Assembly (NCBI GenBank): GCA_951812955.1 | Contig: OX638340.1 | Coordinates: 2,240,001-2,304,000, forward strand | Direction: 5' to 3' | DNA length: 64,000 nucleotides | Source of the DNA: an uncultured Gemmatimonadota bacterium | Lineage (GTDB): Bacteria; JAAXHH01 | Shown: positions 7,195 through 64,000 of the stretch, piece after piece | How the letters are laid out: every line of letters begins with the position of its first letter | How positions within the stretch are numbered: the first letter of the stretch is position 1 | Translations under genes and position numbers: made by a program | Notes under the pieces: model-generated | The model's database searches: none | The model's input: the letters and a program-made list of their open reading frames with translations, nothing else | What the model was told of the DNA's origin: nothing

Positions 7195-8826
7195 TCAGGC
7201 CTCGTCCATGAAAGGATAGCGCCAGTCCGTCGGCGGGACCATAGTTTCCTTGATCGTCCGGGCGCTCATCCACCGCAGCAGGTTCATCGGACTGCCCGCC
7301 TTGTCGTTCGTTCCGGACGCCCGGGCGCCACCGAAGGGCTGCTGTCCGACGACGGCCCCGGTGGGCTTGTCGTTGACGTAGAAATTACCGGCCGAGTTGC
7401 GGAGCGCATCCGATATGCGGACGATGGCTTCGCGGTCCTGCGCGAAGACGGAGCCGGTCAGGGCGTAGGGTGACGTGCCGTCGCAAAGCGTAAGCGTATC
7501 TTCCAACTGGTCGTCTTCGTAAACGTAGATCGTGAGCACGGGACCGAAGATTTCTTCTTCCATGGTTTTGAAACGCGGGTTCGTCGTCACGATTGTCGTC
7601 GGTTCGACGAACCAGCCTCGCTCGCGGTCGCAAACGCCGCCCGTGATGATCTCGGCGTCATCCGCCGAACGGGCGTATTCGATGTGACCGGCGATGTTTT
7701 CGAAGGAGGCCTCGTCGATCACGGCCGCCATGAAGTTGGTGAAGTCTTCGGGATCTCCCATCTTGATCTGCGAAGCTTCCGCCGTGAACCGATCCCTGAA
7801 TGCCGGCCACAGGGAACGGGGAATGTACATCCGGGAGGCCGCGGAACACTTCTGCCCCTGGTATTCGAAGGCGCCGCGTACCGCCGCCGCGACGAGGGCT
7901 TCCACGTCCGCTGAGGCGTGGACGAAGATGAAGTCCTTCCCTCCCGTCTCGCCCACGATGCGAGGGTAGTGCCTCATGCGCTCAAGGTTGCCCGCCACCG
8001 TGCGGTACATCCGCTGAAAGGTCTCTGTCGAACCGGTGAAATGGATCCCTGCCAGATCCGGGCTGTTCAGCACCGGATCGCCCACTTCGGCCCCGGATCC
8101 CGGGATGAAGTTAATCACGCCGGGGGGCAAACCGGCTTCTTGCAGCAGCCGCATGACGTGCCACGCCGAATAAACGGCCGAGGATGCCGGCTTCCAGAGG
8201 ACCGAGCAGCCGGTCAGCGCCGGCGCCGTGGGCAGGTTGCCGCCGATGGCCGTGAAATTGAACGGGGTTACGGCAAAGACGAACCCCTCGAGGGCCCGGT
8301 ACTCCAGTCGGTTCCACACCCCGACAGAGGATGCCGGCTGGTCGCTCATGAGCTGCGCGAGGTAGCTGACGTTGAATCGCCAGAAATCGATCAGTTCGCA
8401 GGCCGAATCGATCTCGGCCTGGTAGATCGTCTTGGACTGGCCCAGCATGGTGGCGGCGTTGACCGTCTGGCGCCAGGGACCGGCCAGCAAGTCCGCCGCT
8501 TTCGCTATAACCGACGCCCGGTGCTCCCAGGGCATATCCGCCCACGCGGCGCGGGCTTCCAGGGCCGCATCGATCGCCATACGGACCTCGACCGCTCCCG
8601 CTTTGTGATAGACGCCGAGATCGACTGTGTGATCGTGAGGCGCCCGTAGCGGTGCCGTGTTACCCGTCTTCACTTCGCGCCCGCCGATGATCAGTGGGAC
8701 CTCGACAGGCGAGGATTTCAACTCACCGAGCTTCGCCTTGACGGCGGCTCGTTCGGCCGATCCGGGCGCGTAGTCCAGTACCGGCTCGTTGTAGGGCTGA
8801 GGCGGGTTGAAGCGTGCGTTGGCCAT
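7195..8826 (-). CDS. pruA: L-glutamate gamma-semialdehyde (1-pyrroline-5-carboxylate) dehydrogenase, aldehyde dehydrogenase superfamily
   Basis: Start chosen at MANARFNPPQPYNEPVLDYAPGSAER (ATG at 8826). The ORF track extends a further 44 codons to 8958 in an Arg-rich extension. The ALDH catalytic Cys region FEYQGQKCSAASR is present. Confidence 0.85.
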   Translation of the reverse strand: MANARFNPPQPYNEPVLDYAPGSAERAAVKAKLGELKSSPVEVPLIIGGREVKTGNTAPLRAPHDHTVDLGVYHKAGAVEVRMAIDAALEARAAWADMPWEHRASVIAKAADLLAGPWRQTVNAATMLGQSKTIYQAEIDSACELIDFWRFNVSYLAQLMSDQPASSVGVWNRLEYRALEGFVFAVTPFNFTAIGGNLPTAPALTGCSVLWKPASSAVYSAWHVMRLLQEAGLPPGVINFIPGSGAEVGDPVLNSPDLAGIHFTGSTETFQRMYRTVAGNLERMRHYPRIVGETGGKDFIFVHASADVEALVAAAVRGAFEYQGQKCSAASRMYIPRSLWPAFRDRFTAEASQIKMGDPEDFTNFMAAVIDEASFENIAGHIEYARSADDAEIITGGVCDRERGWFVEPTTIVTTNPRFKTMEEEIFGPVLTIYVYEDDQLEDTLTLCDGTSPYALTGSVFAQDREAIVRISDALRNSAGNFYVNDKPTGAVVGQQPFGGARASGTNDKAGSPMNLLRWMSARTIKETMVPPTDWRYPFMDEA

Positions 8827-9095
8827 GATCCATATGTACCCGCCGCGGGGCCGATGTGTCAACTGTTTTGTAGGCCTTCCATGCGGCTGGAGGATCGGCG
8901 AATCAACGGCCGTTGGACGAGCGGACAGACGGCGGACAGACACTGCCGGACGGGCCATTTTAGCCTTGCCAGATCCTGCGGGGAAATGAGATATTGAGGT
9001 TATAGGCCAAAGCCAGACACGCGAATCATAAGAGCAGGATCAACCAGGTTCGCGGCAGCCCAGGAATTGCAGCCGCCCGGACCGGAGGTACGGTC

Positions 9096-10184
9096 ATGAG
9101 CACCGATCAAGCTGACCAGGAACACGGCATCAAGGCGGTCAACCAGGAATTCACGCAATACGACCAGGTGAAGAAGGAACAGACCTACAACCTGGCCGAA
9201 GGCGCGGCGGAGGAGGAATTCGACGAGGAAACGCAGATCAGGACCTGCGACATGAACCTGTTCCATCACGGCGGACCGGAGGGCAAGGCGCAGTTCGCCC
9301 GGGACATCGGTGAGGCCATGGAGGGCATCGGTTTCGTGATCCTCGAGAACCATGAAATCCCGGCCAGCCTGTACGTCGAGGCCGAGCGCAAGGTAGCCGA
9401 GTTCTTCACGTCCACGCCTATAGCGGATAAGATGAGATACGAGGCCCAGCGGCACGGGTCGGTCAACCAGGGCTACTTCCCCATCAAGCAGACCAGCCGG
9501 ATGCATCCCGATCTCGTCGAGGGCTGGGTATTCTGCCGGCGGGCCTTCAACCTGGGCGAGAACCCGGACTACCGCGAAACGGACTACTGGCCCGCGACCG
9601 GATACGAACCCTTTTTCCGCCAGGTCATCCGGCATCACGAAGGTCTGATCCTGCCCCTCATGCAGAGCATCCTGGCCTATCTCGGCTGTGACTCGACAAT
9701 GTACGACGAGAAACTCACGCGAACGAACTTCGGCTTCCGGCTCAACTACTACCCGCCCATCACCCGGGAGGACGACGAGTCCGGCGCCGGACGCATGCTG
9801 GGCCATGAGGACGTGGACCTGTTCACCATCCTGCCCTCCCACGGGGTGGATGGCCTGCAGGTGCTCAACCGCGAAAACATGAAGTGGATCCGCCTCAATC
9901 CGCCCGAGGGCAGCATCATCATCAACACCGGCGACTACATGCAGCGGATCACCAACGACCGCCTTCCTTCCACCACGCACCGTGTCAGCAAGCCTATCGA
10001 CACCAGTCTCTACGAATCGGCCCGCATCAGCATTCCCATGGCCGTATACGTCTGGGAGGAAGAAATGCTCGAGGTGCTGCCCAACACGGGCGAGCCCAAG
10101 TACGAACCCATCTCCGCCGTCCAGTTCCACACCCGGACCACGAGCAAGTACTACGGCGACGATTATGCGGTGGATGATGATTGA
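9096..10184 (+). CDS. 2-oxoglutarate/Fe(II)-dependent oxygenase, isopenicillin-N-synthase-like (DIOX_N + 2OG-FeII_Oxy) family
   Basis: HxD...H facial triad (GHEDVDLFTILP ... STTHRV) with the DSBH core GLQVLNRENMKWIRLNPPEGSIIINTGD. Confidence 0.75.
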   Translation: MSTDQADQEHGIKAVNQEFTQYDQVKKEQTYNLAEGAAEEEFDEETQIRTCDMNLFHHGGPEGKAQFARDIGEAMEGIGFVILENHEIPASLYVEAERKVAEFFTSTPIADKMRYEAQRHGSVNQGYFPIKQTSRMHPDLVEGWVFCRRAFNLGENPDYRETDYWPATGYEPFFRQVIRHHEGLILPLMQSILAYLGCDSTMYDEKLTRTNFGFRLNYYPPITREDDESGAGRMLGHEDVDLFTILPSHGVDGLQVLNRENMKWIRLNPPEGSIIINTGDYMQRITNDRLPSTTHRVSKPIDTSLYESARISIPMAVYVWEEEMLEVLPNTGEPKYEPISAVQFHTRTTSKYYGDDYAVDDD

Positions 10185-44830: not shown

Positions 44831-45298
44831 ATGAAACGTCCTTTCATTCGGATCTTGACGACCACGCTGTCATGCTTTCTTATCGCGGGATTGGCCATGG
44901 CGGGTTGCGGCGGCGAAGGCGGCGGAAGCCAGGACCATGCCGAAGAACCGGCCGAAAGCGAGGCGCCCGACCCGAACACCGAGGCGCGCCAGGAGTACAT
45001 GAGAGAGATCGCGCAGCTCTGCGAAGGGATCGCCCTGGCGATCGAGGAAGGATCCGTGGGGACGATCGGCGCCGACGTGTCGAATCTCAAGGGGGTCATG
45101 GAGGAAGTGTCTACGATGCCTCCGCGATACGATTCTTCGAGATTCGGGTTCTACGCCTCCGACTTCCAGATACGCGCCGACACGCTCATCGCAGCTGCGG
45201 AGACCGGTTCGGCCATCGAGGCCGACTCCGCGATGCAAGCCCTCGCGATCACCTGCGGCGTTTGCCATTACAACTGCAAGTTCCCGGCCGATCCGTAA
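44831..45298 (+). CDS. Cytochrome c'-like (class II c-type cytochrome) lipoprotein
   Basis: Lipoprotein signal (FLIAGLAMAGC), about 135-aa helical mature part, single CxxCH heme motif (CGVCH) about 12 residues from the C-terminus, as in cytochrome c'. Confidence 0.5.
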   Translation: MKRPFIRILTTTLSCFLIAGLAMAGCGGEGGGSQDHAEEPAESEAPDPNTEARQEYMREIAQLCEGIALAIEEGSVGTIGADVSNLKGVMEEVSTMPPRYDSSRFGFYASDFQIRADTLIAAAETGSAIEADSAMQALAITCGVCHYNCKFPADP

Positions 45299-45370
45299 TT
45301 CGCGGTTAGTTCCCGGCCGACCCGTAAATATCCGGCAAGTTCCCGGCCGATCCGTAATTCCCGCCAAGGA
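45279..45370. repeat. Three tandem copies of about 30 bp (agttcccggccgatccgtaa...), the first containing the last 6 codons and stop of the cytochrome gene
   Basis: aagttcccggccgatccgtaattcgcggtt / agttcccggccgacccgtaaatatccggca / agttcccggccgatccgtaattcccgcc. Confidence 0.8.
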
Positions 45371-45376
45371 GGAACC

Positions 45377-46360
45377 ATGATACGTCAATTCACCGCGGCG
45401 CTCGTCTGCGCCGCGCTCATAGCCGCGGCGTGCAGTGATTCCGAAGGGCCCGCGCCGTCCGAAGAGGAGCCCGCAACCGTGAACCCGATGAATGAATACG
45501 GCATGACGGCCAGCAACGTATTCCTGTACTACGCCGACGTAGAAGCGGCGACGGAGTTCTACACCCGGACCCTGGGCTTCGCCGTTGCGGCAGATTACGG
45601 GTTCGCCAAGATCCTCCGCGTCGCCCCGAGTTCCTTCATCACCCTCGTCGACGAAGAGATGGGCATGCACAGCGCCAGCGATCCCAAGACCGTGGCCATC
45701 GCCCTCATCACGGACCAGCTGGACGAGTGGTGGGACTACATGAAGGACCAGGAAGTAGAGATGCGGTCCACCTCCTACAACCCGGTCGAGGGACGTCCCC
45801 ATCACGGATTCGTCGCCATCGATCCGGAGGGTTACCTCCTGGAGTTCGAGCGGTTCAACGAACACGCCGAGAACGAGATGCTGGTCCCGGTGCTGAACGA
45901 GACCGAGACGATCTATCCCGCCGAAGGCACGTCCAATGTGCCTCCGGGACTGGGTTTCAAGGCGACGGTGGTGTGGTTCTACTACAAGGACATGCCCGCG
46001 ATCCAGGCCTTCTACGAAGAGGTCATGGGCTTCGACCTGATCGTGGACCAGGGGTGGACCAAGATCTACCGCATCTCGCCATCGGGCTACATGGGCCTCG
46101 TGGACGAGCAACGCGGCATGCACAACTTCACGGAGAAGAAGGCCGTCACCATGTCCTTCTGGACGGACCGTATCGACGACTGGTACGCCTACGTCAGCGG
46201 CCACGGCGACTTTGAAATGCGCTCCGAGAAGGTCGAGGAAACGGACCGGTACCGCGCCTTCGTCGCCTACGATCCGGAAGGCTACTTCCTTGAATGGAAC
46301 GTCTTCAAGGACGCGCCGGACAACGAGACGCTCCACAGAATGCTGCGGGGCGAAGAGTAG
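45377..46360 (+). CDS. Two-domain VOC (glyoxalase/bleomycin-resistance/extradiol dioxygenase) family lipoprotein
   Basis: Lipoprotein signal (ALIAAAC). Two internally repeated halves (FLYYADVEAATEFYTRTLGF ... VVWFYYKDMPAIQAFYEEVMGF), each ending in a YDPEGY.LE motif. Confidence 0.65.
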   Translation: MIRQFTAALVCAALIAAACSDSEGPAPSEEEPATVNPMNEYGMTASNVFLYYADVEAATEFYTRTLGFAVAADYGFAKILRVAPSSFITLVDEEMGMHSASDPKTVAIALITDQLDEWWDYMKDQEVEMRSTSYNPVEGRPHHGFVAIDPEGYLLEFERFNEHAENEMLVPVLNETETIYPAEGTSNVPPGLGFKATVVWFYYKDMPAIQAFYEEVMGFDLIVDQGWTKIYRISPSGYMGLVDEQRGMHNFTEKKAVTMSFWTDRIDDWYAYVSGHGDFEMRSEKVEETDRYRAFVAYDPEGYFLEWNVFKDAPDNETLHRMLRGEE

Positions 46361-52270: not shown

Positions 52271-53086
52271 TTAGTGCCGCGGTACCAGCACTTCGTTGGC
52301 GCTGTCCAGCCGGACGGGTTTCGCGTAGTGATACACGTTGACGCCCTCGGCGACCGGCGTGGGCACCCGGACGATGAACTCCACCCAGTCAGGTGTATTA
52401 AACGCGGCGAAGGCCAGTTCGATCCCTTCCATCATGTCTTCCGGGTCGCGGGTCAGGTCCGGCAGCAGTACCGGGCCCGTGTCCGGCTGGTAGATCCAGT
52501 CCCGCTCGTTGGCATTGATCGTCTTGACCGGGTATTCGAGCACCGCGGCGTACCGGTCGTTCCCGATGGTCGTCCGGGCGTTCAGGGGGACGTTGCCGAG
52601 GACGGCCTCGACGATGGTCCGCGGCGTCTCCAGAAGGCGGCCGTCCACGCGGGACAGGTCGATCCGGACGTCGTCGAAGGTCTCCGCGATGGCGACGATC
52701 TGCCGCTCGGGCTGCTCTCCCAGGGAGGGCGGGTAGAGCGTGGCGCCCCGGTTCGCCACCTCGTAGGTCTTGATGGCCATGAAGGTGTCCGACGAGAAGA
52801 TCGGCTTGAAGTCCGCGCTGGGGATGTGCCAGATATCCCGCTCCACCCCGACCTGTTCGGTCTTGCAACTCACCCCCAGGACGTATTCTTCCCGGAACCC
52901 GCCGTCCTTCCCGGTCACGGTCAGGGTGGCCTCTATGGGAATGCGGGCGTTATTCAGGGAATAGGGCACCTTCTGGGTCACGGTCTTCGGCGGTTTCTTC
53001 TCGGAATCCACGCGAAAGGTAAAATAGGAACGCGCGAAATCGATGGTCTGCATGGGCATGGGCACTCCTGAAAGGTTCTGCAGCAA
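52271..53086 (-). CDS. Hypothetical protein (271 aa), no recognisable domain
   Basis: Coding-like ORF between the beta-lactamase-fold gene and a repeat-containing intergenic region. Confidence 0.45.
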   Translation of the reverse strand: MLQNLSGVPMPMQTIDFARSYFTFRVDSEKKPPKTVTQKVPYSLNNARIPIEATLTVTGKDGGFREEYVLGVSCKTEQVGVERDIWHIPSADFKPIFSSDTFMAIKTYEVANRGATLYPPSLGEQPERQIVAIAETFDDVRIDLSRVDGRLLETPRTIVEAVLGNVPLNARTTIGNDRYAAVLEYPVKTINANERDWIYQPDTGPVLLPDLTRDPEDMMEGIELAFAAFNTPDWVEFIVRVPTPVAEGVNVYHYAKPVRLDSANEVLVPRH

Positions 53087-53090
53087 CCGG

Positions 53091-53267
53091 CTATGGACTA
53101 CTTGATCCAGATGCAGCCTACAAATGGTTTTTCAACATCTGATTATGGACTACTTGACGCGACTGATTATGGACTACTTGTGATTATGTACCTTCTGTTC
53201 CAGACGCAGATTAAAATGGGTCCTGGACACGGTTATTCATACCTTCTGGACACGGTTATTCATACCT
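53091..53267. repeat. Intergenic direct repeats: gattatggactacttg x3 and c(c/t)tggacacggttattcatacct x2
   Basis: Read from the sequence. The first set lies upstream of the hypothetical gene 52271-53086. The second set lies immediately 3' of the FtsX-permease stop (53256). Confidence 0.8.
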
Positions 53268-55718
53268 CAATGCATGCACAGGGTCGGACAGCGTGGTCTT
53301 CAACGTATGATACATCACAGTCAGCAGAGCGATCATCGTGACGAAAGCCCCTACGAGACCGAAGATGCCAAGATTGACCACGGCGTGATACGCAAACTCC
53401 TGAATCCACGTCATCATCATCGTGTACGCAATTGGCCAGGCTATGGCGTTTGCGATGAGTGACAAAATGACCACCTCGCGGCATTGCAGGGTTAACAGAC
53501 TCAGAAAAGTCGCTCCCAGTGCCTTTCGTATCCCCACTTCCCTGATGCGTTTTCTTGTCGTGTATGAAACAAGGCCGGTCAGGCCCAGGCAAGCGATAAG
53601 AACCGCTATCAGCGAAAAACTGCCGAGTATCGTAATCAGTCTGTTCTCTTCGTTATAGAACTGTGCGGTGTCTTCATCCAGGAAGTAGTAGGCAAATGCG
53701 AAGTCCGGATTGATGTCCCTCCATGTCTCCTCGATGAATGCCAGGGTTTCCTCGTAGTTCTCCGAACCGAGTTTAATGGACACATTCCAGAATTCATCTG
53801 ATGCGAGCATGGCGAGCGGTTCGATTTCCGACCTTAAGCTATTGTAATGAAAGTCATTTACTACCCCGATTACCGTTCTGAAGGATTCAGCGGCCTCCCC
53901 GGACGCTGACATGCCGCGGGGCGCAATCCACCTTATCCTTTCTCCCACGGCTCCTTCAGCAGAATCCCAGCCGGCTTTCGCGGCCGCGCGCTCGTTGAGA
54001 ATGATTGAACGCCTGTCTTCCGCCGCCAGGGTACTCGAGAAAAAACGTCCTGCTTTCATGGTCATGCCAAGCGTACGGAGGTAGTCGGCGTCGACCCAAA
54101 AGGTCCTTACCTGGATTTGCCCTCCGTCGTCTGCGGTTATCGGCCGTATGGTCGTTTGTAGCGGCGGTCTTCCCGGGGGCATGTCGGACCCGGAAACACT
54201 GAGTACGCTATGGTGTTCAAGCAGTCTTTCTTTCAGGGCCGAGAATGTATTTACGACAGGAGTGAATGTGAGCGGAATGACGACTATCCGTTGGTTGTCA
54301 TAGCCCAGGTCCTTGTCCCGGATGTAATCTATTTGCTGATACACGATGCAGGTAGCGATTATCAGAACAGTCGATATGGTGAATTGAAACACGACCAGCG
54401 TTTGACGCAGCGACGCCTTTTTTATCCCTCTGCTAATCCCGCTTTTAAGTACGTCAATCGGTTTGTAAGATGAAAGCAGGAGGGCGGGGTAAATGCCGGA
54501 GACAAGTCCAACCATCAGCGAAGTGCCGAGTAACGCCGGTATCAACTCGGAGATATCATAACTGATCTGGTCTGCTGACGCTGTCATCATACTGCTGAAC
54601 ACGGGAAGCAGGAACTCGATCATTCCCCAAGCGATAGGCAAGGCGATGATGGCGATAAACACAGACTCTCCGATATGCTGTGCCATCAGTTGGGCTCGTT
54701 GCGCTCCCAGCGTTTTACGCAGTCCTATTTCACCTGCACGGCCGCTCGAGTACGCGGTAGCGAGATTGATGAAGTTCACACAGGCAATCATCAGTATCAG
54801 TACCGCTACGGCGCCGTAGAGGAAAACAGTTGAAATACTGCCGTTTGGTTCCAACTCACCCATGCGACTAGAGTAAAGATGAATGGATGTCAGGGGTTGC
54901 AGAGTGAGGTCAAAAGTAATTTGCTCACTTTCAAACCGGGGATTCACGTGCCTGGAAACAAACTCGGGAAACTTGGTGGTCAATTCACCGGGGATGGAAG
55001 CCGGTGTGAGCAACAAGTAAACATGGCTGCGGTTCCAAAGATCCCAGGTGTACCGCTCATCCGGCCTAAAACTGACCGATGATTCACGTTGATGTGCGAG
55101 AAAATCATAATTCATGTGCGAGTTTGGTGGCAGGTCTCGCATTACCCCCACGATACGATAGTCCCAGGTATCTTCGGCGCGAATCGTTTTACCTATGGGA
55201 TCGGCATCCTTGAAGTACTTCAGCGCCATGGATTCGGACAAAACGACCGTAAAGGCGTCTTTCAGCGCGGTTTCGGGGTTTCCTTGAACGAATTCGACCG
55301 AAAAAACATCGAAAAACGTGGAGTCCGTGTGATAGAACCCCTTTTCATAGAATCGATTTTCGCCGTGGGCTATCATGTAGGAAGAACCCGGTTTCAGAAC
55401 GGTCACCGACGCTTGAATTTCCGGGAACTCCTCTTTCAGGACGCTGACCAGGGGGGTCAAGGCAGCAGCGGTTTCCGTGGTGCTGTTCGGACTGTGTATG
55501 TCCATCGCCACGCGGTATATTCTGTCTGAATTCACATTGAACCGATCGAAACTCAGTTCGAACCGCATGTAGAGCATAATCATCACGAAACATGTTACGC
55601 CAATTGTAAGACCCACTACATTGATGGATACATAAGCCTTATTGTTCCACAGGTGGCGAACAGTAGTCCTTAAAATGTTACTGATCAGCGACGCAGGAAG
55701 AAACCCGGTAGCGGCCAT
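53256..55718 (-). CDS. FtsX-like ABC transporter permease with two FtsX domains (MacB/YtrF-like permease-only protein)
   Basis: N-terminal TM, large periplasmic domain, 4-TM FtsX block, second periplasmic domain, second FtsX block. Start moved to the ATG at 55718 (MAATGF). The track ORF begins at an upstream TTG. Confidence 0.8.
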   Translation of the reverse strand: MAATGFLPASLISNILRTTVRHLWNNKAYVSINVVGLTIGVTCFVMIMLYMRFELSFDRFNVNSDRIYRVAMDIHSPNSTTETAAALTPLVSVLKEEFPEIQASVTVLKPGSSYMIAHGENRFYEKGFYHTDSTFFDVFSVEFVQGNPETALKDAFTVVLSESMALKYFKDADPIGKTIRAEDTWDYRIVGVMRDLPPNSHMNYDFLAHQRESSVSFRPDERYTWDLWNRSHVYLLLTPASIPGELTTKFPEFVSRHVNPRFESEQITFDLTLQPLTSIHLYSSRMGELEPNGSISTVFLYGAVAVLILMIACVNFINLATAYSSGRAGEIGLRKTLGAQRAQLMAQHIGESVFIAIIALPIAWGMIEFLLPVFSSMMTASADQISYDISELIPALLGTSLMVGLVSGIYPALLLSSYKPIDVLKSGISRGIKKASLRQTLVVFQFTISTVLIIATCIVYQQIDYIRDKDLGYDNQRIVVIPLTFTPVVNTFSALKERLLEHHSVLSVSGSDMPPGRPPLQTTIRPITADDGGQIQVRTFWVDADYLRTLGMTMKAGRFFSSTLAAEDRRSIILNERAAAKAGWDSAEGAVGERIRWIAPRGMSASGEAAESFRTVIGVVNDFHYNSLRSEIEPLAMLASDEFWNVSIKLGSENYEETLAFIEETWRDINPDFAFAYYFLDEDTAQFYNEENRLITILGSFSLIAVLIACLGLTGLVSYTTRKRIREVGIRKALGATFLSLLTLQCREVVILSLIANAIAWPIAYTMMMTWIQEFAYHAVVNLGIFGLVGAFVTMIALLTVMYHTLKTTLSDPVHALRYE

Positions 55719-55852
55719 GGCGGATCTCCAGCAGCTTAAAACGGGATTTCGTACAGGAAGCAGAAGCCACCCCAACCTTATGCGGACAATATAGTGTTCC
55801 CCTCGACTTTTCGGTACGACATTACAGGCGTAACGCGGCAACCAGGAGCACC

Positions 55853-57697
55853 ATGTCAAGCGAACTGACCAGGACCTACCGCCCGTTCTCGGACTCCCGC
55901 CCCTACACCCGCTGGTGGTGGTTCTACGATGACATCAGGGCGGTGGACATCCGGACGCAGTTGCGATGGGTGCGGGACCAGGGATTCGGTGGCGTGGAGA
56001 TCGCCTTCATGTATCCGCAGCCAGGGTCCGGTGAAGGGCCCCACTGGCTGAGCGAGGCGTGGACCGACTTGGTCGCCTTCGCCAAGGAAGAGGCGGACCG
56101 GCTCGGGATCGGATGCGACTTCACCTTCAGCACGTCCTGGCCCTTCGGTGGGTCGATCGTTCCCGAGGAGGACGCGGGACAGGTATTCGGCGGGCCGGCG
56201 ACCCAGCGCCTGGAAAAGTCGTGGGAACTGTCCTATTTCGGCCGCGGCCGGATCCTGAACCACCTGGACACGGGCGCGTTCAGCCGTTACGCCGAGCAGG
56301 TAGGTGGCGCACTGAAACCCGCCCTGCGCGGTACGACCTCGGGAATGTTCTCCGATTCGTGGGAGGTTTTCCCGGAGGGCCTCTGGAGCGCCCACCTGGA
56401 CCCCGTCTTCAGGGATCGTTTCGGGTACGACCTGGAACCGTTCAAGGCATGTATCGACCAGCATCCCGACGTGCGGTACGATTACCGGAAGATCCTGTCG
56501 GATGCGGCGATCGAGGGCTTCTTCAGGCCCTATGCCGAGGTTTGCCACCGCCTCGGCGCCGTGAGCCGCGTGCAGTGTCACGGGGCGCCGACGGACCTGC
56601 TGGCCGCTTTCGCGCTCGTGGACGTCCCGGAATCGGAGGCCCTGCTGTTCGAGACGTTCTTCTCGGCCATACCGGGTTCGGCCGCGGCCCTGGGCTCTCG
56701 GCCCGTGGTGACCTGCGAGACGTTCACCTGTATCTACGGCTACGCGCCATGGCCCGCGCCGTCACCCCATCACGGCGAGGAGAAGGTGGAGGACATGAAG
56801 CTCATGGCGGACGCGGTGTTCGCCAACGGCGTCAACCACATCGTCTGGCACGGCATGCCCTACAACGCGCCGGGCGGGAACAACACCTTCTACGCGACCA
56901 CGCACGTCGGTCCGGGCAGCGGATTCGCCGGCCGGCTTCCGGCCTTCAACGCCTACATGGCCGAGGCCTCCGATTTCGTCAAGCAGGGCAGAACGTATAC
57001 GGACGTGGCCGTGTACCTCCCACTGGAAGACCACTGGATGTGCCATACGCTGCCCGAGGAACGGCGCGGACCGGCCGCGAACTATTACTGGGAACTGCAA
57101 ACCGTCGAACGGCCCGGTGCCTTGCTTGGGTACCATCCCCTCTGGATATCGACGCCTTTTCTGGAGGAAGCGGAGGTGGAGGACGGCCGCGTTCGATATG
57201 GAGAGGCAGTCTTTTCCGTATTGTATGTGGACGTGGAATGGCTGGACGGCGAAGCCCTGTCGGCCCTGCAGCGGCTGGCAAGGGAAGGTGCGCATATCGT
57301 CATTCCGCGCAGGCCTGCCGCGCCCGGCCACCGTCCGCCTGCGGATTACGAGGATCGCCTGAAACAACTGATGAGCCAACCAGCGGTTACCACTGATCCG
57401 GGTGAGGCGCTGCGGCATCCTCCCCTCGTGAGCGGCCTGGACACGCCGGAATTCTGGTGCAGGGAGGTCGACGGCGACTACCACCTATACTTCGCCCATC
57501 CCGATACGAAGCGCATCCGGTACCCCATGGCCTACGAGGGCTGGCGTTCCACGGGCCTGGTCGAGCGGGAAGTAGTCCTGCATGTCAACAGCCGGGAGCG
57601 GACGGTGCGCCTGGCCTTCGAGCCCGAAGATGCCATGCTGGTCAGGGTATCGGCCACGGGCGCGGTGGACGTGGAACCGGGGCGTGTTGATGAGTGA
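55853..57697 (+). CDS. Putative glycoside hydrolase (TIM-barrel, family uncertain)
   Basis: N-terminal RPYTRWWWFYDD...GFGGVEIAF pattern is reminiscent of bacterial GH families. 614 aa. Low-confidence family call. Confidence 0.45.
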   Translation: MSSELTRTYRPFSDSRPYTRWWWFYDDIRAVDIRTQLRWVRDQGFGGVEIAFMYPQPGSGEGPHWLSEAWTDLVAFAKEEADRLGIGCDFTFSTSWPFGGSIVPEEDAGQVFGGPATQRLEKSWELSYFGRGRILNHLDTGAFSRYAEQVGGALKPALRGTTSGMFSDSWEVFPEGLWSAHLDPVFRDRFGYDLEPFKACIDQHPDVRYDYRKILSDAAIEGFFRPYAEVCHRLGAVSRVQCHGAPTDLLAAFALVDVPESEALLFETFFSAIPGSAAALGSRPVVTCETFTCIYGYAPWPAPSPHHGEEKVEDMKLMADAVFANGVNHIVWHGMPYNAPGGNNTFYATTHVGPGSGFAGRLPAFNAYMAEASDFVKQGRTYTDVAVYLPLEDHWMCHTLPEERRGPAANYYWELQTVERPGALLGYHPLWISTPFLEEAEVEDGRVRYGEAVFSVLYVDVEWLDGEALSALQRLAREGAHIVIPRRPAAPGHRPPADYEDRLKQLMSQPAVTTDPGEALRHPPLVSGLDTPEFWCREVDGDYHLYFAHPDTKRIRYPMAYEGWRSTGLVEREVVLHVNSRERTVRLAFEPEDAMLVRVSATGAVDVEPGRVDE

Positions 57698-57871: not shown

Positions 57872-58987
57872 ATGCACGACCCACGATATGGTGACCTGGC
57901 GAAGGTGCTTACCGGACACTCGACGAAGATCCAGCCGGGAGACCGGGTACTCATCGAGGCCTTCGACGTGCCCGATGAAATGGTTATCTCGCTCATCCGG
58001 ACGATCCGGGAAGCGGGCGGCGTTCCGCTGGTCTCCATCAAGCACCAGCGCGTCATGCGGGAACTGGTCCATGCCGGGGACGAGGCCGCGATGGAAGCCG
58101 CCGGCGCCTTTGAATCCCATCGCATGGAGCGGGTGCAGGCCTACATGGCCCTGCGCGGCAGCCGGAACGTGATGGAGATGTCGGACGTGCCTGGCGAAGC
58201 CATGCGGCTCTACGAGCAACGCTGGCTCAAGCCCGTGCACTTCGATATCCGCGTGCCAAAGACCCGGTGGGTGGTGCTGCGCTGGCCGACCCCGTCCATG
58301 GCGCAGCAGGCCGGCACGAGCACCGAGGCCTTCGAGGACTTCTTCTTTGACGTGTGCACCCTGGATTATGGGAAGATGGAAAGGGCCCTCGCGCCGCTGA
58401 AGGAGCACATGGACCGCACCGACCGTGTCCGGCTCACAGGTCCGGGTACCGACTTGAGCTTCAGTATAAGGGACATCCCCACCGTCGGATGCTCGGGCGA
58501 CCGTAACATTCCCGACGGCGAGTGCTTTACCGCGCCGGTGCGCGATTCGGTCAATGGCGTCATTACGTTCAACACGCCGACGCTGTATCACGGCGTGACG
58601 TTTACGGACGTGCAGTTGAGATTCGAAGACGGCAAGATAGCGGAGGCGAGCGGCAACCGGACGGAGAAGCTCAACGAGATCTTCGACACCGATGAGGGGG
58701 CGCGCTACATCGGCGAATTCGCCATCGGCTTCAATCCCCACATCACCGCGCCCATGCTGGACATTCTCTTCGACGAGAAGATCGCGGGTTCCTTCCACTT
58801 CACGCCCGGACAGGCCTACGAGGAAGCGGACAACGGCAATCGATCCGCCGTGCACTGGGACATGGTCATGATCCAGACGCCGGAATACGGCGGCGGGACC
58901 ATCGAGTTCGATGGGGAAGTAATCAGGAAAGACGGGATATTCGTCGTTCCGGAACTCGAGGGCCTGAATCCGGAACGATTGAGGTGA
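57872..58987 (+). CDS. Aminopeptidase, peptidase M29 (AmpS/PepS) family
   Basis: [38 protein letters not shown] is typical of the M29 N-terminus. 371 aa. Confidence 0.8.
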
Positions 58988-59029
58988 AACAGGCGCGCTA
59001 CGACGACGCGGAGAAGATCGAAGAAAGTC

Positions 59030-61555
59030 CTACTGTTCCAACAGCATGAAGCTGGTCGTCCTGGTTGCGCGCTGCCCGGAATGCCGGTCCTCAAGCGTCA
59101 CCGCGAGCACATACACACCGGCCGTCAGGTCCGTGGTATCGATCGCCGTGTACTCGGCTTCCTCGGACGTATCGCCCTCGCCCTCATACGACAGAACGAC
59201 GGTCTGCAGGTCGCCGGACCGATCAACCGGACGGCCGCCCGTATCCGGCATGCCCTCGGGTTTGATCTCGTAGTAGGTCTGGTAGGAGGTCCGTCCCGCT
59301 TCGTCTCTGTCCAGGTTATAGATCTCGTAATACACGTACACCAACTGGCCCCGCCCATATGCGCGCAACGGATGCGGCACGATGTTCAGCCCTTTCCTGA
59401 CGAACGATCCGGTCTGGTCGGTCGGCGTTATACCGGTAGACATCTTGAGGCCGCTGATCATCAGATCGCGTCCCTGGTAATCGGGGATGGAAACCGGTTT
59501 CCTGTAGACGCCGATGCGCTGGGAGGTTTCATCCTGCATCTCCACGGCCGCCGTGAACTGTCCCGAAGGCACCAGGACATCGACGGCCAGCGTGTAGGCC
59601 GATACCCGGGCCTGTTCGGAGCTTATCATCCGCTTCGGCCGTTCGATGGGACCGAAGCGGAACTTCTGATTAAGCACCGGCTTGTTTACCGTATCGCGCA
59701 GCGTGGCCTGGTTTCTCAGGAAAGTTTCGTTTCCAAGGCCGTCGGTGACGTCTCCGAACTGCCAGACTGGAAGGCTGTAGACCAGTTCCATTACCGTTTT
59801 CTTGCCGTTCCCCCGGAAAGTGGTGATGTCGAAGGCATAGTCCAGGCCGTCGCCTCCGAAATCGTGCTCGTAGTCTTCCGGGCTACGCTCGATCAGCTGT
59901 TCGGCGATCCGCTGGGGATGATGCATTTCCTCCTTCTGAATTTCGTTGAATGCAGCGTTGTTATCGGGTTCCGTGGAGATCATCAGCGTGCGCAGGGGGT
60001 AGTCGAACCGGCCCCCTCCCATCTGGTCGACGAAGAACAATTCCATGTCGTGCGCCGCGTATACCCAGCTCTCCGACCTGTAAGACGGCCCCATCGCCCG
60101 TCTTTGAACGATCCTGGTTTCGTAGTTGACCTCGGATTGATCATTTAATGAAGACTCTTCTGTGGCTACGTTGTCCGCGGTGAGGTTGTTCACGGTCAGA
60201 AGTGATGCAGCGCCGAAGCCCGCGCGATTCTTCGTGTCCTGTTCCAGCTGGACGGACACCTGTCCCCGGTCCACTTTCAAGCGGTAACCGAACTGCCAGT
60301 TCTTTTCGCGAATGGCGTCCACGGCCGGATTGCCGGTGGGCATGTAGATATCTCTTGGGTCCTCGTATGAGCGGAAGAGAAACCGTCGGCGGTCGTCGGG
60401 CTCGCCATAGCGGACGTATATCTCCCCACGACGGTCGTAGGGGAACCGAGCCGAGGAAAAGTGTATACGTGCATACATCACCCGCTTGTAATGTTCGACC
60501 AGGCGTTCGTTCTCGACCGTGGCTGGATTCGGGTCCCGGGCATTCCAGAAGTCCTGCCACAACCTGTCGCGGGCCGGTCCTTTCGCGGCCTCCCAGGCCG
60601 CCAGCTCGTCGGGAGAAGCCACGTGGGCCAGGTCCCAGTAAATCTCCTGTTCCTCGGACTCAAGCCCCTTGATGTAGGTCTCCAGCGACCGCTGCAGCAG
60701 GTCGTACTGTTTCTTCGAACTCATGGACAGCGCTTCGAACTGCGTCAGCATGGTCCGGATCAGGTCGGGCGTGATACCCTCCATCTCCTCCGCCATCTTC
60801 CGGAGCTGTTCTGCGCCCCGCTCGTAATATTCGAACCGGTGACAGATGCCGGCGAATTTCCGAAGCGTCTCGGGATGGTCCGGATTGACCTGGTACTGTC
60901 TCAGGTAATTAGTCAGCGCCTTGATGTAGTCGTCGTAACGGTCCCTGACGCGCTTCCCGTGGTCCGCCAGCTTCAGTTCCTCGTAACAACGGCCGAGTTG
61001 ATAGAATGCGTCCGGATGCTCGGGATCCAATTCTACAGTCCGCTCAAAGTACGCCCGGCCATCCTGATGACTGCCGATCAGCCAGGCGGTATCGACCTGG
61101 TCCATGTACGTCAGGCCCATGATGTACTGGATCTGGGCGTTTTCGGGATCCAGTCTCATGGCGGTGCGCAACGCCTTCCGGGCATCGAGGCGCCGGTGCG
61201 GCATGCGATTGTATACGAGCCCCAGGCCCATATGGCCAGGTGCCCATTTCCTGTCTCTCCTGACCGCGTGCTTGAAGGCCTTGAGCGCTTCTGCGTCCCT
61301 GTTCAGTGCGAACAGGGCCATGCCGAGCCAGTAGTGGCCGGAAGCACTGTTCTTATTATCCAGTACCGCCTGCTGCAACGGAGGCAGCGCTTCACGGTAC
61401 ATGCCCAGTTCGTAGTAGCGTTTGCCTTCTTCAAGCGATGACTGGCTTGCCAGCCCTGCATCCGGCGGCAAGGCGGACTGGGCCTGCGAGCGACCGAATG
61501 GGACCCACACGGTCAGAATCAGTGCGGCGGTTGAAATGAAACGGAGTGTAGTCAT
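59030..61555 (-). CDS. Large secreted TPR-repeat protein with a C-terminal GWxTD-like domain
   Basis: Signal peptide (MTTLRFISTAALILTVWVPFGRSQA), N-terminal TPR repeats, then PYDRRGEIYVRYGEPDDRR (GWxTD-like core). Paralogous to the next gene. Confidence 0.6.
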   Translation of the reverse strand: MTTLRFISTAALILTVWVPFGRSQAQSALPPDAGLASQSSLEEGKRYYELGMYREALPPLQQAVLDNKNSASGHYWLGMALFALNRDAEALKAFKHAVRRDRKWAPGHMGLGLVYNRMPHRRLDARKALRTAMRLDPENAQIQYIMGLTYMDQVDTAWLIGSHQDGRAYFERTVELDPEHPDAFYQLGRCYEELKLADHGKRVRDRYDDYIKALTNYLRQYQVNPDHPETLRKFAGICHRFEYYERGAEQLRKMAEEMEGITPDLIRTMLTQFEALSMSSKKQYDLLQRSLETYIKGLESEEQEIYWDLAHVASPDELAAWEAAKGPARDRLWQDFWNARDPNPATVENERLVEHYKRVMYARIHFSSARFPYDRRGEIYVRYGEPDDRRRFLFRSYEDPRDIYMPTGNPAVDAIREKNWQFGYRLKVDRGQVSVQLEQDTKNRAGFGAASLLTVNNLTADNVATEESSLNDQSEVNYETRIVQRRAMGPSYRSESWVYAAHDMELFFVDQMGGGRFDYPLRTLMISTEPDNNAAFNEIQKEEMHHPQRIAEQLIERSPEDYEHDFGGDGLDYAFDITTFRGNGKKTVMELVYSLPVWQFGDVTDGLGNETFLRNQATLRDTVNKPVLNQKFRFGPIERPKRMISSEQARVSAYTLAVDVLVPSGQFTAAVEMQDETSQRIGVYRKPVSIPDYQGRDLMISGLKMSTGITPTDQTGSFVRKGLNIVPHPLRAYGRGQLVYVYYEIYNLDRDEAGRTSYQTYYEIKPEGMPDTGGRPVDRSGDLQTVVLSYEGEGDTSEEAEYTAIDTTDLTAGVYVLAVTLEDRHSGQRATRTTSFMLLEQ

Positions 61556-61704
61556 GATCTCTATGTGATAAACCGGGTACGGTATGGCCTGCAAGGTACG
61601 GTGTAGCCCGCATGGTACGATATGGCCTGCGAACAAACTGAACCGTCGATCAAAGCGGCTGTTTCCCCACACGTTCGGCGACGCGGGGAAGACCGAAGAA
61701 AGTC

Positions 61705-64000
61705 CTACCGTTCCATGACCAGGAAGTTGGCTGATTTGGAAACGGTACTTCCCGCGTGCAGGTCGGTAAGCCTGACAGTAAGTATATACTCACCCGCCGG
61801 CAGACCCGAAGTATCCAATGAAGTATACTCACGGTCCTCGGCTGAAGACCCTTCTCCCGCGAAGGCCATCATTACCGTCTGCATGTCTCTTTGCCTGCGG
61901 GCCGACCAGCCACGCCTTTCAGTAACCTCCAGGGGGCTGATCTCGTAGTGGAATTCGTACGCTGTTCTCTTCTCCCTGTCCAGGCTGAGGTTGTATATCT
62001 CGCAGTAAACGTAAACGGGGTTTCCCCGAAGGTAGAGCCGTCCCGGATTGGGCGTGATGTTCAATCCCTTGCGCACAAAGGGGCCCTGTACGCCTGTCGG
62101 AGCGATGATGGTGGCCAACTTGAGATCGCTGATGAGTAATTCTTCGCCGCTGTAATCAGACAGGGTGACTGGCTTGCGATACACTCCGATCCGGCTCGTC
62201 GTCTCGTCCTGCACCTGGACCGCCAGCGTGAAGCGTCCCGCCGGCGCCACGACGCTAGCGGGCAACGAATACACCGGGACATTCACTTGGCTTTCGGCCA
62301 TCGGCCCCTTCGGCCGGTCGAAGGGGCCGAAACCGAACTCGTGGGTGAACTGCGGGCTCATGGTCGAATCACGCAGGGTGACCAGGTGCGCGAGCCGGGT
62401 CCTGATCCCTCTGCCGTCCGACACCTCACCGAACTGCCATATGGGTATGCTGTAGGACAGATCCAGTTCCGTTGCACCGTTGTCCGCCCTGAAACTTACG
62501 GCGTCGAAGGCGTACTCGAGCGGCTCTCCGCCGTAGTCGTGCAGGTATTCCTCCGGGGCTTTGGCGATCAGTTCTTTGGCGAGCCGCCGGGGACTGAACC
62601 TTTCCTGCCGGGCCATCGCCTGCGGGTTGGTAAGCAGGTTGCCCTGGGGGTAATCGAATCGGCCCCCGCCGAACTGGTCGACGAAGAACAGTTCCAGGCC
62701 ATGCCGGACGTATACCCAGCTCTCGGTAGTGTATCCCGCACCCATTTCCTTTCTCTCCCTCTGCAGGTCAAAGACCGCGGATGATGCAACGATTCCGTCG
62801 GCCAGCGTTCCGCCAAGGGAGTCCAGTTCTGCTACAGTTACCCCCTCGGGCGGGACGATCGTCAAATTGCCCCGGTCGACACGCAATTGATAGCCAAACC
62901 GGTTATTCTGCTCTCGGATCGCGTCCACTGCCGCGTCATCGGAAATCGTAGCACTTTGATAGGCAATCCGATCTGCGTTATAGACGTTGCCGCGGCGGTC
63001 TTCCGGTTCACCGTAACGGACGTACATCTCGCCGCGGCGGTCATAGGGGTGCTGTCCCTGTGAAAAATGGTACCGGGCATACATTACGCGACGGTAATGC
63101 GCTACGAGGCGTTCGTTGGTCACGGTGGCGGGATTCGAATCCCTGGCATTCCAGAAGGCATGCCAGCGCGCATCGCGTTCGAGTCCGCCGGCTTCCTTCC
63201 AGGACGCCAGCTCGTCAGGAGTAGCCACGTGCGCCAGATCCCGGTAAACGCGCTGTTCGTCAGGGCCAAGAAGGGAAATGTACGTTTCAAAAATCCCATG
63301 CAGCACATCCGGCCGTGATTTCGAGTCTTCGGAAAGCGTGCTGAATTGCGTAAGCAGGGTCTGGACGATAGCTGAACCCGAATCTTCAAGTTCTGCTCCG
63401 GCATGTTCCAGTAACTCAACGGCCAGACCATACCTTTCGGAAAGAAGGGCCAGATAGACGAAACGGCCGAGTGCGTCGTAATGGCCGGGATTTACCTTGA
63501 ACTGCGAGATATATGCCGCCATCGCCTTGTCGAATTCGGGCGACTCGGGCCGTTCAAAACAACGGCCGATCTGAAAATACGCATCGGGATGGGAAGGATC
63601 CAATACCGCCGCTTTGAGGAAATAGTTCCGGCCGTCCCGGCCGCCACCCAGAATCCGGTCGGTCTTTCGCGGATTCATATGGGCGATTCCGATATGGTAC
63701 TGGATTTCCGGGTCGTCAGGCGCCAGCCTGGCCGCCATACGCAAGGCGTGACGCGCGTCCAGTCTTCGGTATTTCAACTGAATGTAGGACTTGCCCAGCC
63801 CCACGTAGCCTAACGCCAACTTCTCGTCCAGTTCGACTGAACGCTTGAACGAACTTACCGCCTTCCGGTATTGCTCCAACCCGTATTGAGCCATGCCGAG
63901 CCAGTAGTGGGCGGGCGCCGAACCCCCATCAGCCTCGACGGCCTGATTAAAGTACGGCAATGCTTCCGCGAACTTTTCCTGGTCGAATAGCGTCCGGCCC
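61705..64000 (-). CDS. Paralogous TPR + GWxTD-like domain protein. The 5' end runs off the window.
   Basis: Shares long conserved blocks with the preceding protein (ATVxNERLVxHY(K/R)RVMYARxHFS, PYDRRGE(I/M)YVRYGEP, ESWVYxxHxxELFFVDQxGGGRFDYP, YYEIYNL). The reading frame is open to position 63999. Confidence 0.6.
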   Translation of the reverse strand, partial: GRTLFDQEKFAEALPYFNQAVEADGGSAPAHYWLGMAQYGLEQYRKAVSSFKRSVELDEKLALGYVGLGKSYIQLKYRRLDARHALRMAARLAPDDPEIQYHIGIAHMNPRKTDRILGGGRDGRNYFLKAAVLDPSHPDAYFQIGRCFERPESPEFDKAMAAYISQFKVNPGHYDALGRFVYLALLSERYGLAVELLEHAGAELEDSGSAIVQTLLTQFSTLSEDSKSRPDVLHGIFETYISLLGPDEQRVYRDLAHVATPDELASWKEAGGLERDARWHAFWNARDSNPATVTNERLVAHYRRVMYARYHFSQGQHPYDRRGEMYVRYGEPEDRRGNVYNADRIAYQSATISDDAAVDAIREQNNRFGYQLRVDRGNLTIVPPEGVTVAELDSLGGTLADGIVASSAVFDLQRERKEMGAGYTTESWVYVRHGLELFFVDQFGGGRFDYPQGNLLTNPQAMARQERFSPRRLAKELIAKAPEEYLHDYGGEPLEYAFDAVSFRADNGATELDLSYSIPIWQFGEVSDGRGIRTRLAHLVTLRDSTMSPQFTHEFGFGPFDRPKGPMAESQVNVPVYSLPASVVAPAGRFTLAVQVQDETTSRIGVYRKPVTLSDYSGEELLISDLKLATIIAPTGVQGPFVRKGLNITPNPGRLYLRGNPVYVYCEIYNLSLDREKRTAYEFHYEISPLEVTERRGWSARRQRDMQTVMMAFAGEGSSAEDREYTSLDTSGLPAGEYILTVRLTDLHAGSTVSKSANFLVMER

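Follow-up and report, generated by a model that had tools for sequence, protein, structure and literature searches.

Proteins carrying a GWxTD domain (NCBIfam TIGR04514; PF20094, GWxTD_dom) make up a very large exported family for which the literature searched holds no published function. GWxTD, TIGR04514, PF20094 and IPR030959 all go without mention there, in agreement with the statement, in a preliminary description of the locus analyzed here, that no function is recorded for this domain. Export and N-terminal arrays of tetratricopeptide repeats (TPRs) are also features of the periplasmic scaffolds CpoB/YbgF, PilW and PrsT (PEP-CTERM TPR lipoprotein). The locus in question occupies one end of a 64,000-nucleotide stretch (hereafter the window) from an uncultured Gemmatimonadota bacterium (contig OX638340.1, positions 2,240,001 to 2,304,000) and consists of two adjacent genes:

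59030..61555 (including stop codon), minus strand: gene 1 (p1-type), encoding an exported protein of 841 aa that combines TPR repeats with a GWxTD module and two beta-sandwiches
61705..64000, minus strand: gene 2 (p2-type), same architecture as gene 1; listed open reading frame (ORF) 61705-63960

The pair is real but ordinary for a lineage of the Latescibacterota type, and it belongs to a catalogued, functionally uncharacterized family.

Membership in the GWxTD family

The relationship to GWxTD proteins suspected at the outset was confirmed by a profile search. Against a curated TIGR04514 cut-off of 28 bits, gene 1 scored 55.0 bits (profile positions 5-99 of 105) and gene 2 scored 49.9 bits (positions 3-90 of 105). 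With PF20094, the gene 1 region reached 15.3 bits (E = 0.017, profile positions 36-114 of 172), below the gathering threshold of 26.9 bits, and TPR families are the only Pfam entries above threshold in either protein. The PF20094 threshold is passed by relatives, namely P0121 (44% identical, 30.4 bits), P0134 (40%, 35.9 bits) and a protein from locus L064 (31.8 bits); PF20094 membership of gene 1 thus holds by transitivity rather than directly. The matching segment is central in the gene 1 product (aa 308-401 of 841), not C-terminal as had been proposed.

In both window genes the motif reads PYDRRG. In a survey of 326 family proteins, PWDxRG was the commonest form outside the close clade, with GWDxRG, GYDDRG and a single WETDRG also present. 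The motif of the window clade reads as a conservative W to Y exchange within the pattern [PG][WYF]D.RG: the aromatic residue, the D and the R-G of the name-giving motif are retained, the G-W and the T are not. The original wording, "GW replaced by YD", was imprecise, as it is G-W that corresponds to P-Y. Alignments of gene 1 with representatives at 75-95 TIGR04514 bits run through aa 255-549 of the 552-aa query region, and these proteins, among them P0285 with the classical WETDRG motif, possess the same TPR front, GWxTD domain and C-terminal module as the window proteins. On sequence grounds, both products are bona fide, somewhat divergent members of the family; some of their homologues already bear the name "GWxTD domain-containing protein" at NCBI and JGI.

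A conserved module of about 550 residues

The gene 1 ORF spans 59030-61672. The ATG at 61555 is the most plausible start because homologues align from M1 and because of the N-terminal leader, MTTLRFISTAALILTVWVPFGRSQAQ; the resulting 841-aa protein is 100% identical to database protein P0001. The gene 2 frame is open through base 64000, and its N-terminus therefore lies outside the window; the orthologue in L030 (93% identical, 806 aa) has a hydrophobic leader at its N-terminus. In a crude test, such leaders were present in 123 of 131 full-length family ORFs, consistent with the earlier claim that the proteins are secreted. The segments of the two proteins, delimited with the help of AlphaFold2 (AF2) models and their predicted local distance difference test (pLDDT) scores, are as follows:

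61478..61555, minus strand: predicted Sec signal peptide MTTLRFISTAALILTVWVPFGRSQAQ of gene 1, by inspection of the translation without a dedicated predictor
60686..61438, minus strand: TPR-repeat region of gene 1, ~aa 40-290; Pfam TPR_11, TPR_16, TPR_19 and TPR_2 above cut-offs
60353..60634, minus strand: N-terminal part of the GWxTD domain of gene 1, aa 308-401; TIGR04514 match
60425-60442, minus strand: PYDRRG motif of gene 1, from the translation
60086..60352, minus strand: variable, probably disordered insert splitting the GWxTD core of gene 1, ~aa 402-490; AF2 pLDDT 33-49
59876..60085, minus strand: C-terminal part of the GWxTD core of gene 1, ~aa 491-560; ESWVY...ELFFVDQ.GGGRFDYP strands plus two helices
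59486..59836, minus strand: Ig-like beta-sandwich 1 of gene 1, ~aa 574-690
59033..59446, minus strand: Ig-like beta-sandwich 2 of gene 1, ~aa 704-841, with the Y.E.Y.L motif (VYVYYEIYNL); AF2 pLDDT 90-97
62986..63246, minus strand: GWxTD domain of gene 2 including PYDRRG; TIGR04514 match and translation

A first, full-length AF2 model (pLDDT 66) was good in the TPR region and at the C-terminus only, the core being too poor. A second model, limited to aa 290-841 and built from a more diverse alignment of 58 sequences, reached a mean pLDDT of 79.9 and a predicted TM-score (pTM) of 0.65. The TPR region is predicted as an all-helical repeat (pLDDT ~90 for aa 40-150 of gene 1). After a helical linker, the N-terminal GWxTD part of gene 1 comprises helices with FW..RDP and NERLVEHY.RV, followed by PYDRRGEIYVRYGEPD. 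The insert that comes next differs greatly in length between relatives. Beyond it, the C-terminal part of the core carries the conserved ExWxY and F..D motifs, its strands being modeled at pLDDT 81-90; the equivalent segment of one relative aligns with PF20094 profile positions 101-154. The 105-aa GWxTD "domain" is thus the front part only of a conserved module of ~550 aa, made of a split alpha/beta core and two Ig-like beta-sandwiches.

Residue conservation was measured over 123 representatives no more than 50% identical to one another. Residues kept in 87-100% of them comprise, in the core, the W of FW, the D of RDP, the R of NER, the E-H and the following R, as well as the D and R-G of the motif, the G.P of YGEP, and ExWxY; in the last domain they comprise an S, a P, Y.E.Y.L and a D, with Y.E.Y.L itself kept in 119-123 of the 123. 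No homologue of solved structure was found by sequence, the best match being TcmN (E = 0.59). Among the fold matches listed none covered the GWxTD core, a region for which a multi-domain query is less sensitive, so that this is not proof of a new fold; those to the beta-sandwiches are generic (~100 aligned residues, 8-14% identity).

Two old paralogue lineages side by side

That the two adjacent minus-strand genes are paralogues sharing long blocks, as first noticed, is borne out by BLASTP (45% identity, 63% positives over 785 aa, E = 0). The blocks PYDRRGE(I/M)YVRYGEP(D/E)DRR and ESWVY..H..ELFFVDQ.GGGRFDYP are present in both genes; the third block cited, YYEIYNL, occurs exactly in gene 1 only and reads YCEIYNL in gene 2. 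The N-terminal TPR regions, said to be divergent, are not dramatically more so than the rest (41% identity, against 47-63% elsewhere): identity is highest in the N-terminal GWxTD part (63%), followed by the C-terminal GWxTD part (55%), beta-sandwich 1 (49%) and beta-sandwich 2 (47%), and it is 35% in the insert. An assembly duplication is excluded because DNA and protein identities are so low (the best DNA blocks are ~60-75% alike, the best shared ones 72-75% identical); moreover, the same gene order is repeated in L006 and L036. A promoter and terminator scan of the gene pair gave nothing exceeding shuffled expectation.

The pair had been interpreted as a tandem duplication. A recent local event of this kind is rejected, each gene having much closer relatives elsewhere than its 45% identical neighbor. 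With p1-type genes found at other loci in other genomes gene 1 shares 63-79% identity, and with p2-type genes elsewhere gene 2 shares 60-93%; at this site, related genomes mostly have the p2-type gene only. Since closer orthologues exist elsewhere, comparison of the sequences identifies gene 1 and gene 2 as old paralogue lineages brought side by side and not as a fresh duplication. In ~14 related genomes the p2-type gene stands alone between a co-directional MacB-like permease and a convergent gene for an M29 aminopeptidase; only in the window, L006 and L036 does a p1-type copy lie between p2 and M29. The other p1-type genes follow the gene for a protein rich in repeats whose end bears a weak likeness to TonB-C, and both kinds of p1 copy coexist in two genomes (L006 with L007, L036 with L009).

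A 55-nt direct repeat (repeat family D4) was found at the 3' ends of the two genes:

59001..59055: copy A of the repeat, the terminal 26 nt of gene 1 and the adjoining 29 nt of its 3' flank
61676..61730: copy B of the repeat, the terminal 26 nt of gene 2 and the adjoining 29 nt of its 3' flank; 3'-end alignment

The copies are 84% identical, the flank being better conserved than the coding DNA. The 3' flank of gene 1 continues into sequence of the p2-M29 spacer of L030, an "empty-site" genome lacking the p1 copy. The repeat may be a trace of how the 2.67-kb p1 segment came to lie here; recombination at the 3' ends may have inserted it, and other routes are conceivable.

The protein preceding p1-type orthologues (590-860 aa; plus strand of loci L003-L010 and L038, ~7800-9900, for example L004:7767-9749) has an N-terminal hydrophobic segment and long acidic tandem repeats (…HEVTTFDVPEPMDD…). 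Its identification as a TonB protein is rejected, the match to TonB_C (E = 0.037) falling below the cut-off.

Family size and gene arrays

With aa 290-841 as phmmer query, 1.84 billion cluster representatives (50% clustering) yielded 5241 proteins at E<=1e-3, of which 1692 reached E<=1e-10 and 182 reached E<=1e-30. Most have a length of 750-850 or 1100-1250 aa and are matched over the entire module. Species-representative genomes gave 356 confirmed matches, from which 76 loci were kept, all of them in metagenome-assembled genomes (MAGs) labeled Latescibacterota, "Gemmatimonadetes" or unclassified bacterium. Many of these MAGs come from sponges and a coral (SB0665, APA, IRC1, RHO, Plut isolates), others being labeled groundwater and SI072 samples; further named relatives belong to Zixibacteria and candidate division KSB1. 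The 76 loci contain 153 family ORFs; next to a family gene there is most often another member of the family, and L043, L059 and L061 have arrays of six to eight copies. At least one further paralogue is encoded in the genome to which the window belongs: P0039 (54% identical), on the same 3.81-Mb contig as P0001. Some of the largest tandem gene arrays seen here are those of GWxTD genes in Latescibacterota-type genomes of sponge, coral, groundwater and seawater origin.

Several observations were made on the arrays and on variant forms of the family. More distant Latescibacterota (L043, L044, L059, L061, L073) have five to eight GWxTD genes in tandem, interspersed with genes for Kelch-repeat lipoproteins (~365 aa); in L052, L063 and L076 it is tandem FGE-sulfatase-like genes (~350 aa) that are interspersed with GWxTD genes. 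A long form of 1100-1300 aa has an extra N-terminal region of ~380-500 aa ahead of the TPR repeats:

L056:16676-19981, L052:2732-6616, L064:7538-10888, L061:1519-4953, L050:8831-12439, L077:696-4241: long-form GWxTD genes

This extension has no Pfam match at E<1e-3, and no enzyme domain is fused to relatives of 1000-1300 aa. At the other extreme, a metagenomic contig carries, between rho and pdxA in a housekeeping context, a gene for a short GWxTD protein of 426 aa without TPR repeats (L081:8001-9281); as a single gene outside arrays, it could serve as a tractable model for the family.

Neighboring genes

Three other genes of the window deserve mention:

57872-58987, plus strand: M29 aminopeptidase gene, convergent with gene 1, 42-nt spacer
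53256-55859, minus strand: MacB-like gene, 3 kb downstream
44870-46336, minus strand: 488-aa ORF, no Pfam match at E<=0.001

It had been suggested that the GWxTD pair might be linked to the M29 aminopeptidase. The convergent orientation precludes co-transcription, and an operon is rejected on this ground and because adjacency is conserved among close relatives only. The arrangement is confined to genomes whose M29 proteins are 89-96% identical, a narrow clade, and is therefore inherited synteny; no M29 neighbor was found around distant family members or in KSB1 and short-form contexts. No functional tie of the gene pair to M29 is supported. More generally, neighbors vary with the paralogue group (GH106-like, GH116, PcRGLX-like, Kelch lipoproteins, FGE-sulfatase-like, MacB-like permeases), and across lineages no neighbor is conserved in the loci examined apart from other family copies.

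Duplicated permeases of the MacB/FtsX type (~790-870 aa) are encoded beside GWxTD genes in L027-L039 and L045-L048 (~7400-9870, plus strand). One lies directly upstream of p2-type orthologues and presumably also just past the end of the window. The MacB-like gene inside the window stands out by its G+C content, 51-52% across the gene (window 52500-55500) against 58-65% in the surrounding genes, which could reflect a different origin. An ORF similar to the 488-aa one (cluster c43) is found in related syntenic loci.

Proposed function and its alternatives

Both proteins are exported GWxTD members, most likely periplasmic or cell-surface. As to their role, we tentatively favor, at slightly less than an even chance, a non-catalytic envelope adaptor situated in the periplasm or at the surface. 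In such an adaptor, the conserved module of GWxTD core and beta-sandwiches would attach to a single shared ligand of the envelope or the extracellular space, possibly a glycan or some other anionic polymer. Different protein partners would be recruited through the TPR array and the insert, which are more variable, and the presence of many paralogues would diversify the client side. The location and the binding roles given here to the core module (ligand) and the TPR region (clients) are all inferred. Consistent with it, no catalytic Pfam or NCBIfam domain is present in gene 1, gene 2 or the longer relatives; the same architecture is retained across the 5241 representatives; and the core is better conserved between gene 1 and gene 2 (55-63%) than the TPR region (41%) or the insert (35%). 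The tendency of family genes to adjoin one another, in arrays of up to eight copies, fits diversification.

Several points weigh against an adaptor role. The literature searched contains no experimental datum or paper on any member, and no ligand, partner or consistent operon neighbor turned up in the loci examined. The beta-sandwich matches, being generic, are no demonstration of sugar binding. The charged core residues are near-universal, each being found in 87-99% of the 123 representatives, and the set they form (the D of RDP, the R of NER, the E-H, the R, the D and R-G of the motif, the E of ExWxY) would also fit an active or metal site. Finally, the proteins may end up in the periplasm, in the outer membrane or outside the cell.

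The main alternative, unlikely but conceivable, is that the GWxTD core is an undescribed enzyme, for instance a hydrolase or lyase with polymers of the envelope, of algae or of the host as substrates; the beta-sandwiches would then bind the substrate and the TPR region would have a regulatory or docking role. No other part of the protein is as well conserved as the core, whose conserved residues are unusually polar, and these polar residues are near-invariant over the 123 representatives (E-H 98-99%, three Arg 97-99%, two Asp 94-95%), but the conserved Arg, Asp and Glu are equally explicable as structural salt bridges, and the core is devoid of a conserved Cys or Ser nucleophile. Nor is there a sequence match to any catalytic family or, among the fold matches listed, one to the core. 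Genes for carbohydrate-active enzymes (CAZymes) or related proteins are frequent in the vicinity (GH106-like, GH116, PcRGLX-like, FGE-sulfatase-like); however, they change from locus to locus, so that adjacency tells little, and CAZyme-type genes are expected to be common throughout such genomes. A broader version, which we consider somewhat less probable again, is that the ~550-aa module as a whole is an unrecognized functional unit, be it an enzyme or a specific receptor for some envelope or matrix polymer. The D/E-H/R constellation would then be its site and the arrays in Latescibacterota would diversify substrates or partners, possibly in conjunction with adjacent MacB/FtsX-type permeases.

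It seems improbable that GWxTD proteins are the periplasmic partners of these MacB/FtsX-type ABC transporters, engaged in mechanotransmission by analogy with FtsEX-EnvC or LolCDE clients. A MacB-like permease does lie directly upstream of, and co-directional with, the p2-type gene in ~16 genomes, and others are found beside some group-B and distant copies, at times with an ABC ATPase, besides the second MacB-like gene of the window, 3 kb away. MacB-like ORFs account for 20 of 184 immediate neighbors and for 14 of 666 genes at ranks 2-8, an approximately five-fold enrichment. However, 16 of the 20 cases represent a single inherited synteny block, adjacency is seen in only three of 31 ortholog groups, and the permeases are missing from most tandem arrays and from KSB1 and short-form contexts; with both families being multi-copy, chance adjacency is likely. 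A role as "eukaryotic-like" TPR effectors by which sponge and coral symbionts interact with their hosts is just as improbable: the nearest relatives do come from the sponge and coral MAGs listed above (see preceding sections), and TPR proteins are reported to be the predominant eukaryotic-like proteins in sponge-associated Latescibacterota (PMC12993501), but the family and its tandem arrays also occur in groundwater- and SI072-labeled MAGs and in KSB1, the conserved part is the bacterial GWxTD module and not the TPR region, and no dedicated secretion signal such as the type IX secretion system (T9SS) C-terminal sorting domain was detected (no match to Por_Secre_tail, PF18962, or TIGR04183 at E<=1 in either protein).

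Leads for characterizing the family are the ~550-aa module, its fixed set of charged residues, and paralogue differences lying mainly in the TPR region and the disordered insert. The window pair itself adds little, amounting to two more family members of modest interest.

Comparison with known systems

The likeness to CpoB/YbgF, PilW and PrsT does not extend beyond export and TPRs: the corresponding models give sub-threshold, TPR-only matches (26-38 bits against cut-offs of 90-312), and these families are without the GWxTD and beta-sandwich module. The C-terminal sandwiches resemble the Ig-like domains of the O-antigen-binding C-terminus of Wzt (6o14) and of RbmA (4be5), a generic fold match at 5-14% sequence identity that demonstrates neither homology nor a shared ligand; alpha-2-macroglobulin MG domains, GH2 accessory domains, transglutaminase beta-barrels and arrestins are matched in the same generic way. 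The catalytic cores of transglutaminases or GH2 enzymes are not matched (overall TM-scores 0.13-0.17), and no papain-like core with the Cys-His-Asp triad of transglutaminase-like enzymes was found. The close resemblance is to the GWxTD proteins themselves, whose TIGR04514 cut-off is passed and whose succession of TPR, GWxTD and C-terminal modules is shared. With respect to the classical members, the window proteins have P-Y-D-R-R-G in place of G-W-x-T-D-R-G, with Y for W and, by our own reading, one residue fewer between the aromatic residue and RG, and their core is split by a disordered insert of ~90 aa.

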